Below are positions 46,878 through 52,916 of a DNA stretch of 64,000 nucleotides, one piece after another (position 1 is the stretch's first letter; each line of letters starts with the position of its first letter). Origin of the DNA: Escherichia coli (GTDB lineage Bacteria > Pseudomonadota > Gammaproteobacteria > Enterobacterales > Enterobacteriaceae). The stretch lies in NCBI RefSeq assembly GCF_003334305.1, contig NZ_QOWS01000014.1; one strand, given 5' to 3'. Both the position numbers and the translations under genes were made by a program. Below the pieces are notes generated by a model. That model worked only from the letters and a program-made list of their open reading frames with translations, searched no databases and had not been told where the DNA came from.

Positions 46878-47689
46878 CCGAATCAGTAGCCCGTTTGCGC
46901 GGCGAACAGTTAACCCTGGGATATGGCAAATATACCGTTGCGGAAAATCTGACTGTAGAAATTCCTGATGGTCACTTCACGGCAATTATCGGACCAAATG
47001 GCTGTGGTAAATCCACGTTACTGCGTACCTTAAGCCGCCTGATGACGCCTGCTCACGGGCATGTCTGGCTGGATGGCGAGCACATTCAACATTACGCCAG
47101 TAAAGAAGTTGCACGCCGGATTGGTCTGTTGGCGCAAAATGCTACCACGCCGGGCGATATCACCGTGCAGGAGCTGGTGGCGCGTGGACGTTATCCGCAT
47201 CAACCGCTGTTTACCCGCTGGCGCAAAGAGGATGAAGAAGCGGTAACGAAAGCGATGCAGGCCACGGGAATAACTCATCTGGCAGATCAAAGCGTGGATA
47301 CCCTTTCTGGCGGACAACGCCAGCGAGCGTGGATCGCGATGGTGCTGGCCCAGGAAACGGCAATTATGCTGCTCGACGAACCCACGACCTGGCTGGATAT
47401 CAGTCATCAGATTGATCTACTGGAACTGTTAAGCGAACTGAACCGCGAGAAAGGCTATACCCTGGCGGCGGTGCTGCACGATCTTAATCAGGCCTGTCGT
47501 TACGCCAGCCATTTGATTGCATTGCGGGAAGGGAAAATTGTTGCTCAGGGAGCGCCGAAGGAGATTGTCACTGCTGAACTGATTGAGCGCATTTATGGTC
47601 TGCGATGCATGATCATTGACGATCCGGTAGCCGGAACGCCGCTTGTGGTGCCGCTCGGACGAACGGCACCTTCAACCGCAAATAGTTAA
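46874..47689 (+). CDS. fepC: Ferric enterobactin ABC transporter ATP-binding protein FepC
   Basis: 271-aa CDS MTESVARLRGEQLTLGYG... with Walker A (GPNGCGKST) and the ABC signature (LSGGQRQR); the ATG overlaps the fepG stop by 4 nt. Confidence 0.92.
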   Translation: MTESVARLRGEQLTLGYGKYTVAENLTVEIPDGHFTAIIGPNGCGKSTLLRTLSRLMTPAHGHVWLDGEHIQHYASKEVARRIGLLAQNATTPGDITVQELVARGRYPHQPLFTRWRKEDEEAVTKAMQATGITHLADQSVDTLSGGQRQRAWIAMVLAQETAIMLLDEPTTWLDISHQIDLLELLSELNREKGYTLAAVLHDLNQACRYASHLIALREGKIVAQGAPKEIVTAELIERIYGLRCMIIDDPVAGTPLVVPLGRTAPSTANS

Positions 47690-48819
47690 ACTAAGTGGTC
47701 TGCCATCATGGCATCCTGTTTTCTGGATGCCATCGCATAGCGCAATAACACGCTACCACAAGCCACCATCCCGCCGATCAGCGCGGAAAGGATCACAATA
47801 ATCGCCTTACCCGGACCGTCTTTTTTCACTGGCAATGACGGGCTTAACTGATATTTAAACGGCGTAAAATTCACATCGTTGATATTTGCTTTTGTTAACT
47901 GCTCAACAAGATACTGACGATTACGTAATTCACCGTTCAGTTCCGCAACGTCAGTGACCGCTTTTTCAATTTCCAGTTTGCGTTCAATACCGTCTGCGCC
48001 GAGAGAAATAGAGAAATCGGGGTCATCTTTAACGGCCTGACCATTACTGTATACGGGCTTTTTAATTCCCGCCGCGTTGGCAATGTCGAGTGAATAATTG
48101 AGGCGCTGAATGTTTGCATCAAGTTGATTTTTCGTTTTAATGCGATCCTGAGCCAGTTTTTCTTTTTCAAACTGGGTTTTGATCTCCAGTTTATTACGGA
48201 CGTTTTCTATCGACTCTTTCACCACCAACGCAGAGATATAATCGATATACCCGCTCAAAACGGTCTGCGCCTCTTTACTGGTTGGCGCGGTAAAACTTAG
48301 CGTCCAGGAGGTATACAGTGACGGTTCATCTTTTTTCTTACTGGCATTGTCATCAACCGCTTTCATTTTTTCGCTCAATGCAACAATAGCGCGATGCAAA
48401 TCCAGTTCATCGATTTTCGCCTCTTTTAATTGGTCCATCACATAAGGTGATGAACGCAGGTACTCTTCCAGCAAGCTAACAGACTGAAACTTCTTGATAA
48501 ACAGGTTAAATGCACCGCCACGGTCGATATTAACATCGAGATCAAGAACGCGGAGTTTGGTAAAGGTTTTCTCCAGGTCCTGCCACTGAATGGCTTCGGC
48601 GGGAGTAATAACGGCTGAGCTGGTCCATTTTTGCGGCAGGATGAAAGAGATCAGTAAACCTGCGCAGGCAAATGCAAAAACGACCGCCATGACCGTTTTT
48701 TTGGCCCGCCATAAAACTTCGATTAGATTAAGTAAATCAATTTCATTATTACTGGGCGACGCCAGAGGATACTCAGAAAAATGAGCGTCACTTCCCTGTT
48801 TAATATTCAATGATGACAT
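47686..48819 (-). CDS. fepE: Polysaccharide co-polymerase (O-antigen chain-length regulator, Wzz family) FepE
   Basis: 377-aa ORF with N- and C-terminal transmembrane helices and a long coiled periplasmic region. Confidence 0.9.
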   Translation of the reverse strand: MSSLNIKQGSDAHFSEYPLASPSNNEIDLLNLIEVLWRAKKTVMAVVFAFACAGLLISFILPQKWTSSAVITPAEAIQWQDLEKTFTKLRVLDLDVNIDRGGAFNLFIKKFQSVSLLEEYLRSSPYVMDQLKEAKIDELDLHRAIVALSEKMKAVDDNASKKKDEPSLYTSWTLSFTAPTSKEAQTVLSGYIDYISALVVKESIENVRNKLEIKTQFEKEKLAQDRIKTKNQLDANIQRLNYSLDIANAAGIKKPVYSNGQAVKDDPDFSISLGADGIERKLEIEKAVTDVAELNGELRNRQYLVEQLTKANINDVNFTPFKYQLSPSLPVKKDGPGKAIIVILSALIGGMVACGSVLLRYAMASRKQDAMMADHLV

Positions 48820-48985
48820 GGGGTATAACCTGAAAATGAGTCCAATAGGGGAAAATCTCCACGGCGCTCACTTTACCAGTTGGTGAGAATTATCCGAAGC
48901 TGAAGTTTGTAAATTCCTTCCACTGAATGCAACATTCACTCTATTTAAGAGAAATAACTAGCAAACTTATAAACTAAATAAATGA

Positions 48986-49020
48986 TTAACCCATAATTAT
49001 TTCCTATAATTATGGGTTAA
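48986..49020. terminator. Perfect 15-bp inverted repeat between entF and fepE (putative entF terminator or fepE regulatory site)
   Basis: TTAACCCATAATTAT-ttcct-ATAATTATGGGTTAA, 15 bp downstream of the entF stop and about 170 bp upstream of the fepE ATG. Confidence 0.5.
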
Positions 49021-49034
49021 TAGATAATGTTAAT

Positions 49035-52000
49035 TTACCTGTTTAGCGTTGCGCGAATAATCGGCCCAATTTTTTCAAACGCCCCTGGAGAGATAATATC
49101 CACATGCGCACAATCCTGACGATAGATATCCAGCTCCGCAATCCACGGCGACCAGGCGCGTTCGGGGCTCATACCTTCCTGAAGCGTGCGTTCAGCAACA
49201 AACAGCGTCGCTTTACCATCAAACGGTACGCTATGAGCAGTCGTCAGCAGGCGCACAGCATCAGCGTAGTTGCCTTCAATGGTGGTAAACAACTCCGTTG
49301 AAGTACTTCCCTGCTGTGCAGCCAGGAAGGCCTCGCGCTCGCGGTTAATCTCCGCCAGCACTTCCGGGTCCAGACCATTAGCTTCTTTTTCCTGCCAGTT
49401 TTGCGTTTCTGGCGGCCAGGTATCCAGCAAGCCAAGAAATGCCACCTGTTCGCCACGGGCACGCAGTCGCGCCGCAATACCCTGCACCAGCGTACCGCCA
49501 AGGGAATACCCCAGCAGGTAATAAGGGCCGTGCGGTTGTTGCTCAAGTAACGTTGCCAGATGCGCTTCGCAGACTTCATCCAGGTTTGTCGCTGTCTGCA
49601 TGGGTCCATGAGGGCGCGGCGACTGAATGCCAATAATCGACCATTGTGGATCGAGATAACGCGAGAGCACGCTAAACTGCCAGGCAAAACCGGATGCCGG
49701 ATGGAAACAAAACAGCGTCGGGCCATTACCTTCACGCAACGGCAGAATGGTTTCGAATCCCATGCGCCGGGAGCTGTCCTCTTCACCATCAATAATCGTT
49801 GCCAGTTTGGCGACGGTTGACGCGACCATCACCTGCCCCGGCGTCACCTGACGAGCAAACTGTCGACTTAACTGCGCTGCCAGTTTCATTGCCAGTAGCG
49901 AATGACCGCCCAGCGCAAAGAAATCAGCATCGGCATCCTGCACGTCACAACCCAGCAACGACGCGAATGCCGCGGCGATAATCTTTTCACTGCCCGCTTT
50001 CGGTGCACGTCCCGACGCTTGTGTCTTCAGTTCAGGCAACGGTAAGGCTTTGCGATCCAGCTTGCCGTTGGCGCTAAGAGGTAACTGTGGAAGTTGCAGC
50101 AGAACCACCGGCACCATATGCGGCGGCAATGTTTCGCGAAGCTGTGCCTGTAATGCGCTGGTATCCAACGGCAGACCTGATTGCGACACCAGATAGCCCA
50201 CCAACTGACGCGCATCACCACCGGTGGCTGCCGCCAGGTTAATCACACAGGCGTGGGTAACGGCTTGTTTGACATCCGGCAGCGCCTGCATCACGCGATC
50301 GATTTCGCCCAGTTCGATACGCTGCCCGCGAATTTTTAGCTGATCGTCACTGCGCCCGAGGTACTCCACCGCGCCGTTATCCAGCCAGCGGGCGACGTCT
50401 CCGGTACGATACATCCGTTCACCTGGGGCAAAAGGATCGGCAATAAAACGGCTGGCGGTCAGATCGGGTCGTCCAAGATACCCCTGCGCCAGTTGGATGC
50501 CGGTGAGATAGAGATCACCCGCCACACCCGGCGGCACCGGATGCATCATCGCATCAAGAATACGCAGACCCGTATTCCATACCGGATAACCAATCGGCAC
50601 ACTGCTGCCGCGCACCTGTGCCAGTTCCTCGCCAAAAGCCGGATACCAGCTGACATCTACCGCCGCTTCCGTCGGGCCATACAGGTTATGCAACGGCGCG
50701 CCGGTTAACTGTTGCCATTCGCGGCATAAATCAGCCGGTAAGGCCTCACCACTACAGAAAACCTGTTTCAACGTCGCGCAATTCTGGCGAGCGGTTTGCG
50801 GCGTCAGCGATGCAACAAATGCCGCCAGCATCGACGGCACAAAGTGCGTGGTCGTTACGCCATATTCGGCAAAGAATTGCTGCATAGCGAGCGGGTCACG
50901 GTGCGCTTCCGGTTCAGCCATCACCAGTTTTGCCCCTGCGATAAACGGCCAGAAAAACTCCCACACCGAGACATCAAAACTGCACGGCGTTTTTTGGGCA
51001 ACGACATCTTCGCCTGTAAGCGGGTAGTGATTTTGCATCCATAACAGGCGGTTAACGATAGCCGTCTGCCCGACCATTACACCTTTCGGCCTGCCGGTGG
51101 AGCCAGAGGTAAAGATGATATAAGCCGTGTGGTGCGGTTGTGAAAGTTGCAGCGGCGCACTGCCCTGGGGGGTAAGCGGGGCGTTATAGCAAAGGCTTGT
51201 TAAATTGGGAACATCGCTAAAGCGCGGCAGTTGATCGTCGGTGGTAATTAACAGCGACGGACGCGCATCTTCCAGCATCATTTTCAGGCGATCGTCCGGA
51301 TAGCCGGTATCCAGCGGTAGCCAGGCCGCGCCAGCTTCAACTATTGCATGGAGTGCCAGGGTCAAAAAGACCGAGCGCGGTAGTGCCACCGCCACGCTGT
51401 CCCCTGGTTTAACGCCGCGCTCACGCAGCAGATTCGCCAGCGCCACCACCTGCTCGCGCATTTCCCGATAGCTGAACAGGTAACGCGCATCTGCCAGCGC
51501 CGGAGCATCCGGTGTTTTTGCCGCTTGTTCTGCCACCAGCGCGCTCAGCGTGGTTTCTGGAATCTCAACCTGAGTGGCGTTGATCTGCGCCAGCTGCGCA
51601 TACTCACCTGGCAGCATAATATCGACATCGCCGCACAACAGCGCCGGATCCGCGGCGAACTGGGCAATCAGCATTTTCAGGCGTTCAGCATGCTGGATTA
51701 ACGTTGGCTCATCGTAACGCTGTTTATTGGCGAGGATCTCAATACTCAAATCACCGTGTTCATCCGGGAACAGGGCCAGTTCAAGGTCATTAACCGGACC
51801 GGTTGCCAGGGTATGGGTTTGCGTCTGAACACCAGGAATATCCAGTTGGTAATCAAATACCTTGATATTGAGTACCGGACCGAACAGCGGTTCCTCTCCT
51901 GCCGCTCGCCCGCTGTCACGGACAATTTGTTCGGCATCGTAACGTTGATGACGACGCATTTTTTTCAGTTGTGCTGCCAGTCGGGTTGCCAGTTCCGGCA

Positions 52001-52916
52001 GCGTTTCTTGCGCCGCAATGTGAATACCCAACGGTAAAACGTTGAGCACGGGTCCGCTAGCCGTCAGCGCCGCCGAGCCCAGTCGACGCATAAAGATAAA
52101 TCCGGCGGCATAGTCCATGCGATTGCACAATCGCCCCAGCCACAAGGCTGCCAGCGCAAGGGCTAAATCGGTACGCTGCACACCTGAAAGTTGCGTAGCC
52201 AGCTGGCGGAATTCCCCGTCGGTAAATTCCAGTTTCAGGCGCAGAATATCTGCCGAAGCGCTGCGCCTCGCTAAAGGTGCCGGAGAAAGTGACGCGGGCG
52301 GCGGCAGTTGACGACGCTGTTCTGCCCAGAATGCCGCATCACGCTGCCAGGCTTCGCTTTCGCGGTATTGCTGGTACTCTTCCACTACATCAGCGAAAGG
52401 CGTAAACGGCGAAGCAGGCGTTGGTTCGCCACGCAGCCATGTGCAGTAAATATTGGCGATCTGGCGAGTAATGGCCGGGAAACTGAAGCCATCGACCAGC
52501 AAATGGTGATAACGCTGATACCAGTACCAGCGGTTATCCGCAACATGTATCAGCTGATGAAAGACCAGTGGTTTACCGCTATCGACGCGCAAATCTTGTT
52601 GCAAATCCGCCAGCATTAATGCCTGCGCAGTACCGTGCGGATCAATATTGGTTCGCAGGTCGATAATTTCTGGCAGTTCGAATATCAGCGCATCATCGAC
52701 CCACTGCCAGACTTCGCCGTTATCTTCCGTAAAACGCATCCGCAACGTATCTGCTTGCGCTAGTCCGACAACCACCGCGCGGGCCAGTAATGGCGCATCA
52801 ACATCTCCAGTTAACTCAACGTAATGCGCCACGCTCCAGGCGGAGGGTAAATCCGACAGTTTTTCTGCCATCCAGATGCCGGGCTGTGCGGCGACCAAAG
52901 GTAAATGCTGGCTCAT
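49035..52916 (-). CDS. entF: Enterobactin synthase component F (NRPS: condensation, Ser-adenylation, peptidyl carrier and thioesterase domains)
   Basis: 1293-aa CDS MSQHLPLVAAQPGIWMAEKLSDLP...; the ORF track's upstream GTG-type extension overlaps ybdZ; AMP-binding motifs (…SGSTGRPKG…) present. Confidence 0.93.
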   Translation of the reverse strand: MSQHLPLVAAQPGIWMAEKLSDLPSAWSVAHYVELTGDVDAPLLARAVVVGLAQADTLRMRFTEDNGEVWQWVDDALIFELPEIIDLRTNIDPHGTAQALMLADLQQDLRVDSGKPLVFHQLIHVADNRWYWYQRYHHLLVDGFSFPAITRQIANIYCTWLRGEPTPASPFTPFADVVEEYQQYRESEAWQRDAAFWAEQRRQLPPPASLSPAPLARRSASADILRLKLEFTDGEFRQLATQLSGVQRTDLALALAALWLGRLCNRMDYAAGFIFMRRLGSAALTASGPVLNVLPLGIHIAAQETLPELATRLAAQLKKMRRHQRYDAEQIVRDSGRAAGEEPLFGPVLNIKVFDYQLDIPGVQTQTHTLATGPVNDLELALFPDEHGDLSIEILANKQRYDEPTLIQHAERLKMLIAQFAADPALLCGDVDIMLPGEYAQLAQINATQVEIPETTLSALVAEQAAKTPDAPALADARYLFSYREMREQVVALANLLRERGVKPGDSVAVALPRSVFLTLALHAIVEAGAAWLPLDTGYPDDRLKMMLEDARPSLLITTDDQLPRFSDVPNLTSLCYNAPLTPQGSAPLQLSQPHHTAYIIFTSGSTGRPKGVMVGQTAIVNRLLWMQNHYPLTGEDVVAQKTPCSFDVSVWEFFWPFIAGAKLVMAEPEAHRDPLAMQQFFAEYGVTTTHFVPSMLAAFVASLTPQTARQNCATLKQVFCSGEALPADLCREWQQLTGAPLHNLYGPTEAAVDVSWYPAFGEELAQVRGSSVPIGYPVWNTGLRILDAMMHPVPPGVAGDLYLTGIQLAQGYLGRPDLTASRFIADPFAPGERMYRTGDVARWLDNGAVEYLGRSDDQLKIRGQRIELGEIDRVMQALPDVKQAVTHACVINLAAATGGDARQLVGYLVSQSGLPLDTSALQAQLRETLPPHMVPVVLLQLPQLPLSANGKLDRKALPLPELKTQASGRAPKAGSEKIIAAAFASLLGCDVQDADADFFALGGHSLLAMKLAAQLSRQFARQVTPGQVMVASTVAKLATIIDGEEDSSRRMGFETILPLREGNGPTLFCFHPASGFAWQFSVLSRYLDPQWSIIGIQSPRPHGPMQTATNLDEVCEAHLATLLEQQPHGPYYLLGYSLGGTLVQGIAARLRARGEQVAFLGLLDTWPPETQNWQEKEANGLDPEVLAEINREREAFLAAQQGSTSTELFTTIEGNYADAVRLLTTAHSVPFDGKATLFVAERTLQEGMSPERAWSPWIAELDIYRQDCAHVDIISPGAFEKIGPIIRATLNR

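Follow-up and report, generated by a model that had tools for sequence, protein, structure and literature searches.

A perfect, AT-rich palindrome lies between entF and fepE in the 64,000-nucleotide stretch of Escherichia coli DNA analyzed here (hereafter, the window), and it raises the question of whether the element acts in RNA, as the end of the fes-ybdZ-entF message, or in DNA, as the binding site of a protein. Termination of that transcript, insulation of fepE, and a protein-binding operator had all been proposed in the first-pass annotation. Our analysis indicates that the palindrome is likely the stem-loop of a Rho-independent terminator that ends the fes-ybdZ-entF mRNA before the separately controlled fepE. 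Termination and insulation are really one function, and this part of the proposal is supported by the position of the element, strand-specific T-tails, covariation that includes G·U pairs, and uncoupled expression of the flanking genes, whereas the operator part is disfavored. The features concerned, all on the minus strand, are as follows.

49035 to 52916, minus strand: entF coding sequence (enterobactin NRPS), from the open reading frame list; RefSeq entF of matching E. coli records is 3882 nt
49006 to 49021, minus strand: hairpin 5' arm, AUUAACCCAUAAUUAU in entF-sense RNA, from the repeat search, terminator scan, and fold
49001 to 49005, minus strand: loop AGGAA, from the repeat search, allele alignment, and fold
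48985 to 49000, minus strand: hairpin 3' arm, AUAAUUAUGGGUUAAU, from the repeat search, terminator scan, and fold
48966 to 48984, minus strand: U-rich tail CAUUUAUUUAGUUUAUAAG with an interrupted U-tract; passes the terminator scan, approximate d-score negative
48953 to 48965, minus strand: homolog (TTTGCTAGTTATT) of the EDL933 H-NS DNase I footprint TTTGCTGGTTATT (PMC8669466), placed through the alignment of E. coli alleles
48884 to 48897, minus strand: putative homolog (TCGGATAATTCTCA), by homology, of the Salmonella SL1344 RcsB box overlapping the fepE -35 (PMC7913699)
48862 to 48878, minus strand: predicted fepE core promoter, with an extended -10 TGgTAAAGT at 48878-48870 and a start at about 48862, from the SL1344 start site and the window sequence
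47686 to 48819, minus strand: fepE, that is wzz(fepE), the O-antigen length gene, from the open reading frame list and RefSeq records

Both genes are transcribed from the minus strand, a detail missing from the earlier description. Read along the transcript, the successive elements are the entF TAA (49037-49035, closing a translation that ends ...IIRATLNR), 13 nt, AUUAACCCAUAAUUAU-AGGAA-AUAAUUAUGGGUUAAU, the tail CAUUUAUUUAGUUUAU, and the fepE ATG (48819), which begins 165 nt past the hairpin; the spacing first reported, 15 bp after entF and about 170 bp before fepE, was close to these measured distances. The entF-fepE spacer is 215 nt long, untranslated, and AT-rich, with a GC content of 33% compared with 56% for entF and 44% for fepE. 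No annotated gene overlaps the hairpin, and the palindrome hairpin on the minus strand was the sole element of the spacer to pass the terminator scan. A 301-bp region is 100% identical to E. coli CFSAN061769 and 93.7% identical to MG1655, and the DNA is not K-12.

The repeat quoted at 48986-49020 was found with the sequence given for it and is indeed perfect; its arms, described as 15 bp, are 16 nt each (48985-49000 and 49006-49021), 100% complementary around a 5-nt loop, the additional base pair lying on the outside of the repeat. Among the perfect inverted repeats of the window with loops of 3–10 nt, none is longer. Simulating the window 200 times with a first-order Markov model never produced arms of at least 14 nt, the maximum of 13 being reached once. 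The stem is as AT-rich as had been noted, with an arm GC content of 19% and 3 G-C pairs in 16; these CCC/GGG pairs occupy positions 6–8 counted from the base, near the stem base, the part in which a terminator requires them. Folded alone as RNA, the hairpin has a dG of -17.2 kcal/mol (z = -5.9 against dinucleotide shuffles).

The element is directional. A T-run follows the hairpin on the entF-sense strand only, and the 10 nt downstream contain on average 6.6 T on the sense strand compared with 2.9 on the antisense strand. Using an approximate d'Aubenton-Carafa score, in which the 1990 formula was combined with current energy parameters, values above 0 were obtained for 14 of 29 hairpins in the sense direction and for none of the 29 in the antisense direction. 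On this approximate scale, the alleles of K-12 (+14), O104 (+20), CFT073 (+7), and E. albertii (+11) are positive; the window allele, whose tail CAUUUAUUUA holds 6 U in 10 and passes a simple scan, scores -35 because its U-tract is interrupted.

To place the hairpin in an evolutionary context, fepE loci were collected by a FepE-based scan with one genome per species, yielding 75 loci. In 22 of these, which belong to other Escherichia, Salmonella, Citrobacter, and Intestinirhabdus, fepE is immediately preceded by entF, and a hairpin with a T-rich tail is located 13–41 nt past the entF stop in 21 of the 22. The exception, Citrobacter sp. MGH106 (L021), has a hairpin 56 nt from the stop and a tail with 2 T in the first 8 positions. 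The 21 hairpins include those of S. diarizonae (GAAACCCAUAAU...AUUAUGGGUUUUUUAUUG), C. koseri (GCCCAUAAUAG...UUAUUAUGGGCUUUUUAUUUG), and Intestinirhabdus (AACCCUUAAUAAU...AUUAUUAAGGGUUUUUUAAUUG). The arm sequences vary between genera while pairing is retained. In a plain MAFFT alignment of 26 homologous hairpins, in which the ten inner pairs were counted, standard pairing was present in 97.7% of cells and changes on both sides of a pair had occurred in 5 of the 10 pairs. The covariation score was 0.346, compared with 0.159 ± 0.017 in shuffles, and was reached by 0 of 500 shuffles; as a control, sliding the 3' partner by 1–3 columns reduced pairing to 35–50%. In C. amalonaticus, an unrelated GC-rich stem (CCCCCGUAAC...GUUACGGGGG) followed by UUUUUUUU occupies the same place; the sequence was exchanged there and the function presumably kept.

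Within the C. amalonaticus group (L025, L026, L030, and L081), the AT-rich hairpin is replaced about 20–40 nt past the entF stop by a GC-rich stem, CCCCCGTAAC...GTTACGGGGG. A T-run follows this stem in L025, L026, and L030, and the tail of L081 is AATTTATAAT. Judged from these sequences, the replacement is a probable example of terminator turnover at a fixed position. FepE homologs with 47–63% identity are also found away from entF, in Enterobacter, Lelliottia, Buttiauxella, Cedecea, and others (L034-L074); in Pseudocitrobacter, entF ends about 1.6 kb upstream of the fepE homolog. Because homologs exist elsewhere and the GC content differs (44% in fepE and 33% in the spacer against 56% in entF), these comparisons suggest that fepE entered the enterobactin cluster by insertion, in an ancestor from which Escherichia, Salmonella, and Citrobacter descend.

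Variation within E. coli was examined in an alignment of ten alleles with 90–100% identity. The core stem, AACCCAUAAUUA/UAAUUAUGGGUU, is kept in all ten. The outer pair is U-A (T..A in DNA) in the window allele and A-U (A..T) in most alleles, so that both sides have changed, and the exchange is a compensatory swap. At the loop-closing position, the window allele has U-A where the others have a C/A mismatch, and the loop is therefore 5 nt in the window allele and 7 nt in most others. In the allele of strain 111, an A-to-G change produces a G·U pair, which preserves pairing in entF-sense RNA only.

The alleles also differ in what follows GGG: the window allele has UUAAUCAUUU, B2 and O157-like strains have UUUAUCAUUU, and K-12 and O104-like strains have UUUUUU(U)AUUUGUUU, the DNA of the K-12 and O104 alleles reading GGGTTTTTT(T)ATTTGTTT immediately past the stem. 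At the position of the window tail (48966-48984), orthologous alleles carry GGGUUUUUU(U)AUUUGUUU. Runs of 5–8 consecutive U, or nearly so, are present in K-12, O104, CFT073, Salmonella, C. koseri, and Intestinirhabdus. In K-12-type alleles, the stem is 13 bp and the CCC/GGG pairs are 3 pairs away from the U-run; because the U-run follows the 13-bp stem without a gap, the K-12 form is a textbook terminator. In the window allele, the proximal U-run has been turned into extra stem pairs (GGGUUAAU-CAUUUAUUU in place of GGGUUUUUUAUUU), and this allele may therefore be leakier than the common K-12 type. We consider it possible, though rather doubtful, that the natural terminator alleles differ in strength, the types being the canonical U-run (K-12, O104, and CFT073), UUUAUCAUUU (B2 and O157), and UUAAUCAUUU with a longer perfect stem (window). 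The termination efficiency of the window allele is uncertain because its U-tract is interrupted.

Among 5426 complete E. coli genomes, the window allele had 227 exact matches (about 4%), the K-12 allele 1424 exact matches and a further 1047 within 95–99%, and the B2/BH100 allele 538 exact matches. Conservation of the palindrome across genomes, named in the first-pass annotation as a check, was found for the paired hairpin at this site, which is kept across alleles; the perfect palindrome itself is a minority allele, present in about 4% of the complete E. coli genomes. A further 516 genomes (101 exact matches and 415 at 95–99%) carry the CFT073-type allele, whose spacer is non-homologous: blastn similarity to the window is absent from a block that reaches from about 9 codons ahead of the entF stop to some 14 nt short of the fepE ATG. 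A comparable hairpin, AAAACCAUAAUC...GAUUAUGGUUUU, is still present in this spacer, with the canonical U-run UUUAUUC behind it.

Comparison of CFT073 (L086, 5240-5500) with window positions 49063-48833 showed flanks identical to the window at 95% (entF) and 92% (fepE). In about 516 of the 5426 genomes, the replacement takes in ~9 codons at the end of entF, the entire spacer, and the promoter region of fepE; it is a cassette-like recombination block, still with a terminator hairpin and an RcsB-like box, TCGGATAAATCTCA. A different rearrangement was observed in E. coli A30 (L010, NZ_CP092500.1, 3040-4184), where IS1A lies directly 3' of entF. Missing from this locus are the terminator, the spacer, and the 5' portion of fepE; the annotation treats fepE as a pseudogene and makes entF 15 nt longer (3897 compared with 3882 nt). 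Additionally, NZ_CP026085.1, recorded as 'Escherichia coli strain DH5alpha' with 4.83 Mb, carries the exact window minority allele and not the K-12 allele. Its size is also larger than expected for a K-12 derivative, and the strain label looks doubtful.

With a stem-loop right after the stop codon on the coding strand, G-C pairs near the base, a U-rich tail, an upstream A-run able to pair with the U-run in most alleles, and a structure kept by compensatory changes, the entF-fepE hairpin is an ordinary example of a well-known kind of element, the canonical E. coli intrinsic terminator. Its dG ranges from -11 to -19 kcal/mol, which is within the usual range for intrinsic terminators. The window allele departs from the canonical form in that its stem is unusually long and AT-rich (3 G-C pairs in 16) and its proximal U-run is interrupted (UUAAUCAUUUAUUU) and lies partly inside the stem, and the classical score gives no call. 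The site also resembles leaky intra-operon terminators, as it lies inside the annotated fes-ybdZ-entF-fepE unit and expression steps down sharply across it (294- versus 4.9-fold in CFT073). It shows no sign of regulated read-through, as no antiterminator structure, leader peptide, riboswitch, or Rfam match was seen, and it appears to be a constitutive partial terminator.

Published expression data bear on this reading. In RNA-seq of CFT073, the ratios of fur mutant to wild type were 388-fold for fes, 158-fold for ybdZ, 294-fold for entF, and 4.9-fold for fepE (PMC7157518 Table S1), figures that pertain to an allele with a canonical U-run and not to that of the window. In ExPEC O78-9, heat-inactivated serum induced fes, ybdZ, and entF and did not induce fepE, which responds to active complement (PMC4145685). 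Both data sets are consistent with a stop between the two genes that is strong but leaky, and do not prove it, because the promoter of fepE itself sets a baseline and the CFT073 allele differs; the smaller fold change of fepE could come in part from a high basal level of that promoter. Databases and papers still give fes-ybdZ-entF-fepE as one operon (PMC5927463 lists the operon name only), and the Fur regulon of CFT073 has been taken to include fepE; termination is therefore taken to be incomplete. Published 3'-end mapping for the site was not found, the supplements of Adams et al. 2021 list neither entF nor fepE, and a full-text literature search with the K-12 hairpin sequence returned no paper. 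That transcripts end at the hairpin, and how efficiently, is what we infer, especially for the minority allele of the window.

The following mechanism can be proposed. The palindrome would reflect, at the DNA level, a stem-loop that forms in RNA where the entF message ends. RNA polymerase running past entF would transcribe the 16-bp hairpin, with three G-C pairs near its base, and then a U-rich stretch, and most Fur-controlled fes-ybdZ-entF transcripts would stop there. The terminator would largely uncouple fepE from iron regulation, leaving it to its own promoter, predicted to lie about 100–140 nt further on under the control of H-NS and RcsB, and a minority of read-through may produce the weak iron response of fepE. 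The hairpin probably also shields the 3' end of the entF mRNA from exonucleases. The main use of the result is in correcting the common single-operon annotation: judged from the conserved terminator together with the published expression data, fepE is for the most part a unit of its own, reached by only a little iron-dependent read-through. The distinction bears on the reading of fepE expression data and promoter-deletion experiments, given the links of fepE to O-antigen length, virulence, and serum resistance. If alleles differ in read-through, iron limitation would feed into fepE expression to differing degrees.

Alternatively, the hairpin could form in RNA without terminating, as a 3' stabilizer or processing barrier, with transcription ending elsewhere, for example through Rho in the spacer. 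Hairpins at mRNA 3' ends block exonucleases, the U-tract of the window allele is weak and interrupted, and a 215-nt untranslated AT-rich spacer could admit Rho. A pure stability element, however, needs no U-run, and one lies directly past the stem in most orthologs, even behind the unrelated stems of C. amalonaticus. Rho sites, moreover, tend to be rich in C and poor in G, unlike this A/T-rich spacer. We therefore regard this explanation as improbable.

A still less likely explanation is that the palindrome acts in DNA, as the operator of a dimeric transcription factor or as an H-NS-type nucleation site regulating the fepE promoter. Like palindromic operators, among them the Fur boxes of the same cluster, it is an AT-rich intergenic dyad within the enterobactin cluster; it is perfect, and it stands in a spacer of 33% GC upstream of a regulated promoter. 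A DNA operator keeps its half-site sequence and its symmetry on both strands. Here the half-sites vary and pairing alone is conserved, and the T-run flanks one side. In the C. freundii group, each hairpin contains 2–5 G·U pairs, which as G·T positions break the DNA symmetry while pairing in one RNA strand is kept; the entF-sense strand folds at -16 to -19 kcal/mol and the antisense strand at -5 to -14 kcal/mol (in one example, -18.5 versus -6.5 kcal/mol). Changing arms with preserved pairing, together with G·U pairs that work in the sense strand only, point to an RNA terminator and not to a DNA operator.

The organization of the fepE promoter bears on the same question. Transcription of fepE in Salmonella SL1344 starts from a site of its own, 43 nt upstream of the ATG. 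Footprinting and EMSA confirmed an RcsB box there, TCGGATAATTCTGA, which lies at -79 relative to the ATG and at -36 to -22 relative to the start (PMC7913699). The window has TCGGATAATTCTCA (48897-48884) at the same distance from the fepE ATG, followed by the extended -10-like TGgTAAAGT. With the fepE start placed by homology at about 48862, the center of the dyad would lie about 140 nt upstream, far from the promoter. In EHEC EDL933, H-NS represses gfp expression driven by a fragment that spans the 3' end of entF and extends into fepE, with the footprint TTTGCTGGTTATT (PMC8669466). H-NS thus binds the intergenic fragment about 20 nt from the palindrome, which could be read in favor of an operator; the window equivalent of the footprint (48965-48953) nevertheless lies outside the palindrome, just past the terminator tail. 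A pull-down with the EDL933 fragment, which contains the O157 allele, recovered H-NS, Dps, CbpA, and abundant non-DNA contaminants and no specific regulator (PMC8669466). The operator proposal therefore fared poorly: half-sites vary, symmetry is lost in Citrobacter, the predicted start is distant, and the DNA-binding proteins pulled down were nucleoid proteins only.

The 'H-NS binding-site deletion' of EDL933, described as removing TTTGCTGGTTATT, raised fepE 2.1-fold (PMC8669466). In Table S4 of that paper, the overlap primer of the pair fepE-bs F2/R1 reads ...CCCATAATTGCAGGAAATAATTATG|TTCTTAAATAGAGTG, and this junction, in the region of window positions 48945-48991 (minus strand), implies a deletion of about 40 bp that also removed the base of the 3' arm and the whole U-tail. 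Judging from the primer sequences, part of the 2.1-fold rise could be read-through from entF.

Candidate binding sites for known regulators were also considered. With the Fur consensus GATAATGATAATCATTATC, the best match in the spacer was 12/19 at 49023-49041, which is background, as 76 sites in the window score 12; a Fur box in the entF-fepE spacer was therefore rejected. The best matches in the window, 42218-42236 (15/19) and 44853-44871 (16/19), served as positive controls of the scan; from the CFT073 gene order, they are predicted to be the known entC/fepB and fepD/entS divergent promoter regions. A PmrA/BasR direct repeat, an idea that stems from the Salmonella wzz(fepE) literature, was likewise rejected, since the two TTAAC motifs start 13 nt apart instead of 11 and the first is TAAAC in most alleles.

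The last explanation, in which the palindrome would derive from a repeated mobile palindromic element (REP, MITE, or IS end), as its copy or its scar, or would mark a recombination junction dating from the acquisition of fepE, draws on the AT-richness of fepE and the spacer relative to entF, the placement of fepE homologs elsewhere in Enterobacter, Lelliottia, and Buttiauxella, and the block swap of the spacer in CFT073-type strains, but it leaves the covariation and the one-sided T-tail unexplained and is excluded as a repeat element. The arm motif has no second copy in the 64-kb window and the 63-nt element occurs at a median of 1 place per genome (maximum 2) in 250 genomes, so it is not a member of a repeat family; the repeat search found no direct repeats flanking the palindrome, and an Rfam 15 scan of 47500-49500 at a permissive threshold gave chance-level matches only (E above 4, far below gathering scores).

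Several minor observations concern promoter-like and palindromic sequences. A promoter-like match inside the hairpin on the minus strand (TTAACA-16-AATTAT, 9/12) was set aside, as the number of such matches equals the shuffled expectation. On the plus strand, antisense to entF, the loop-closing C-to-T change of the window allele creates a perfect TATAAT at 49005-49010, in place of the TGTAAT of most other alleles; with a spacing of 17 nt, the best -35 is ATGATT, which agrees at 3/6 only, and the promoter scan made no call there. Other perfect inverted repeats in the window, with arms of 10–13 nt, are located at 7925-7954, 9602-9626, 4449-4472, 22063-22090, and 62810-62836; the first of these, AAAAAACCCGCTTTTTGAAGCGGGTTTTTT, resembles a bidirectional terminator and is flanked on each side by A and T runs.
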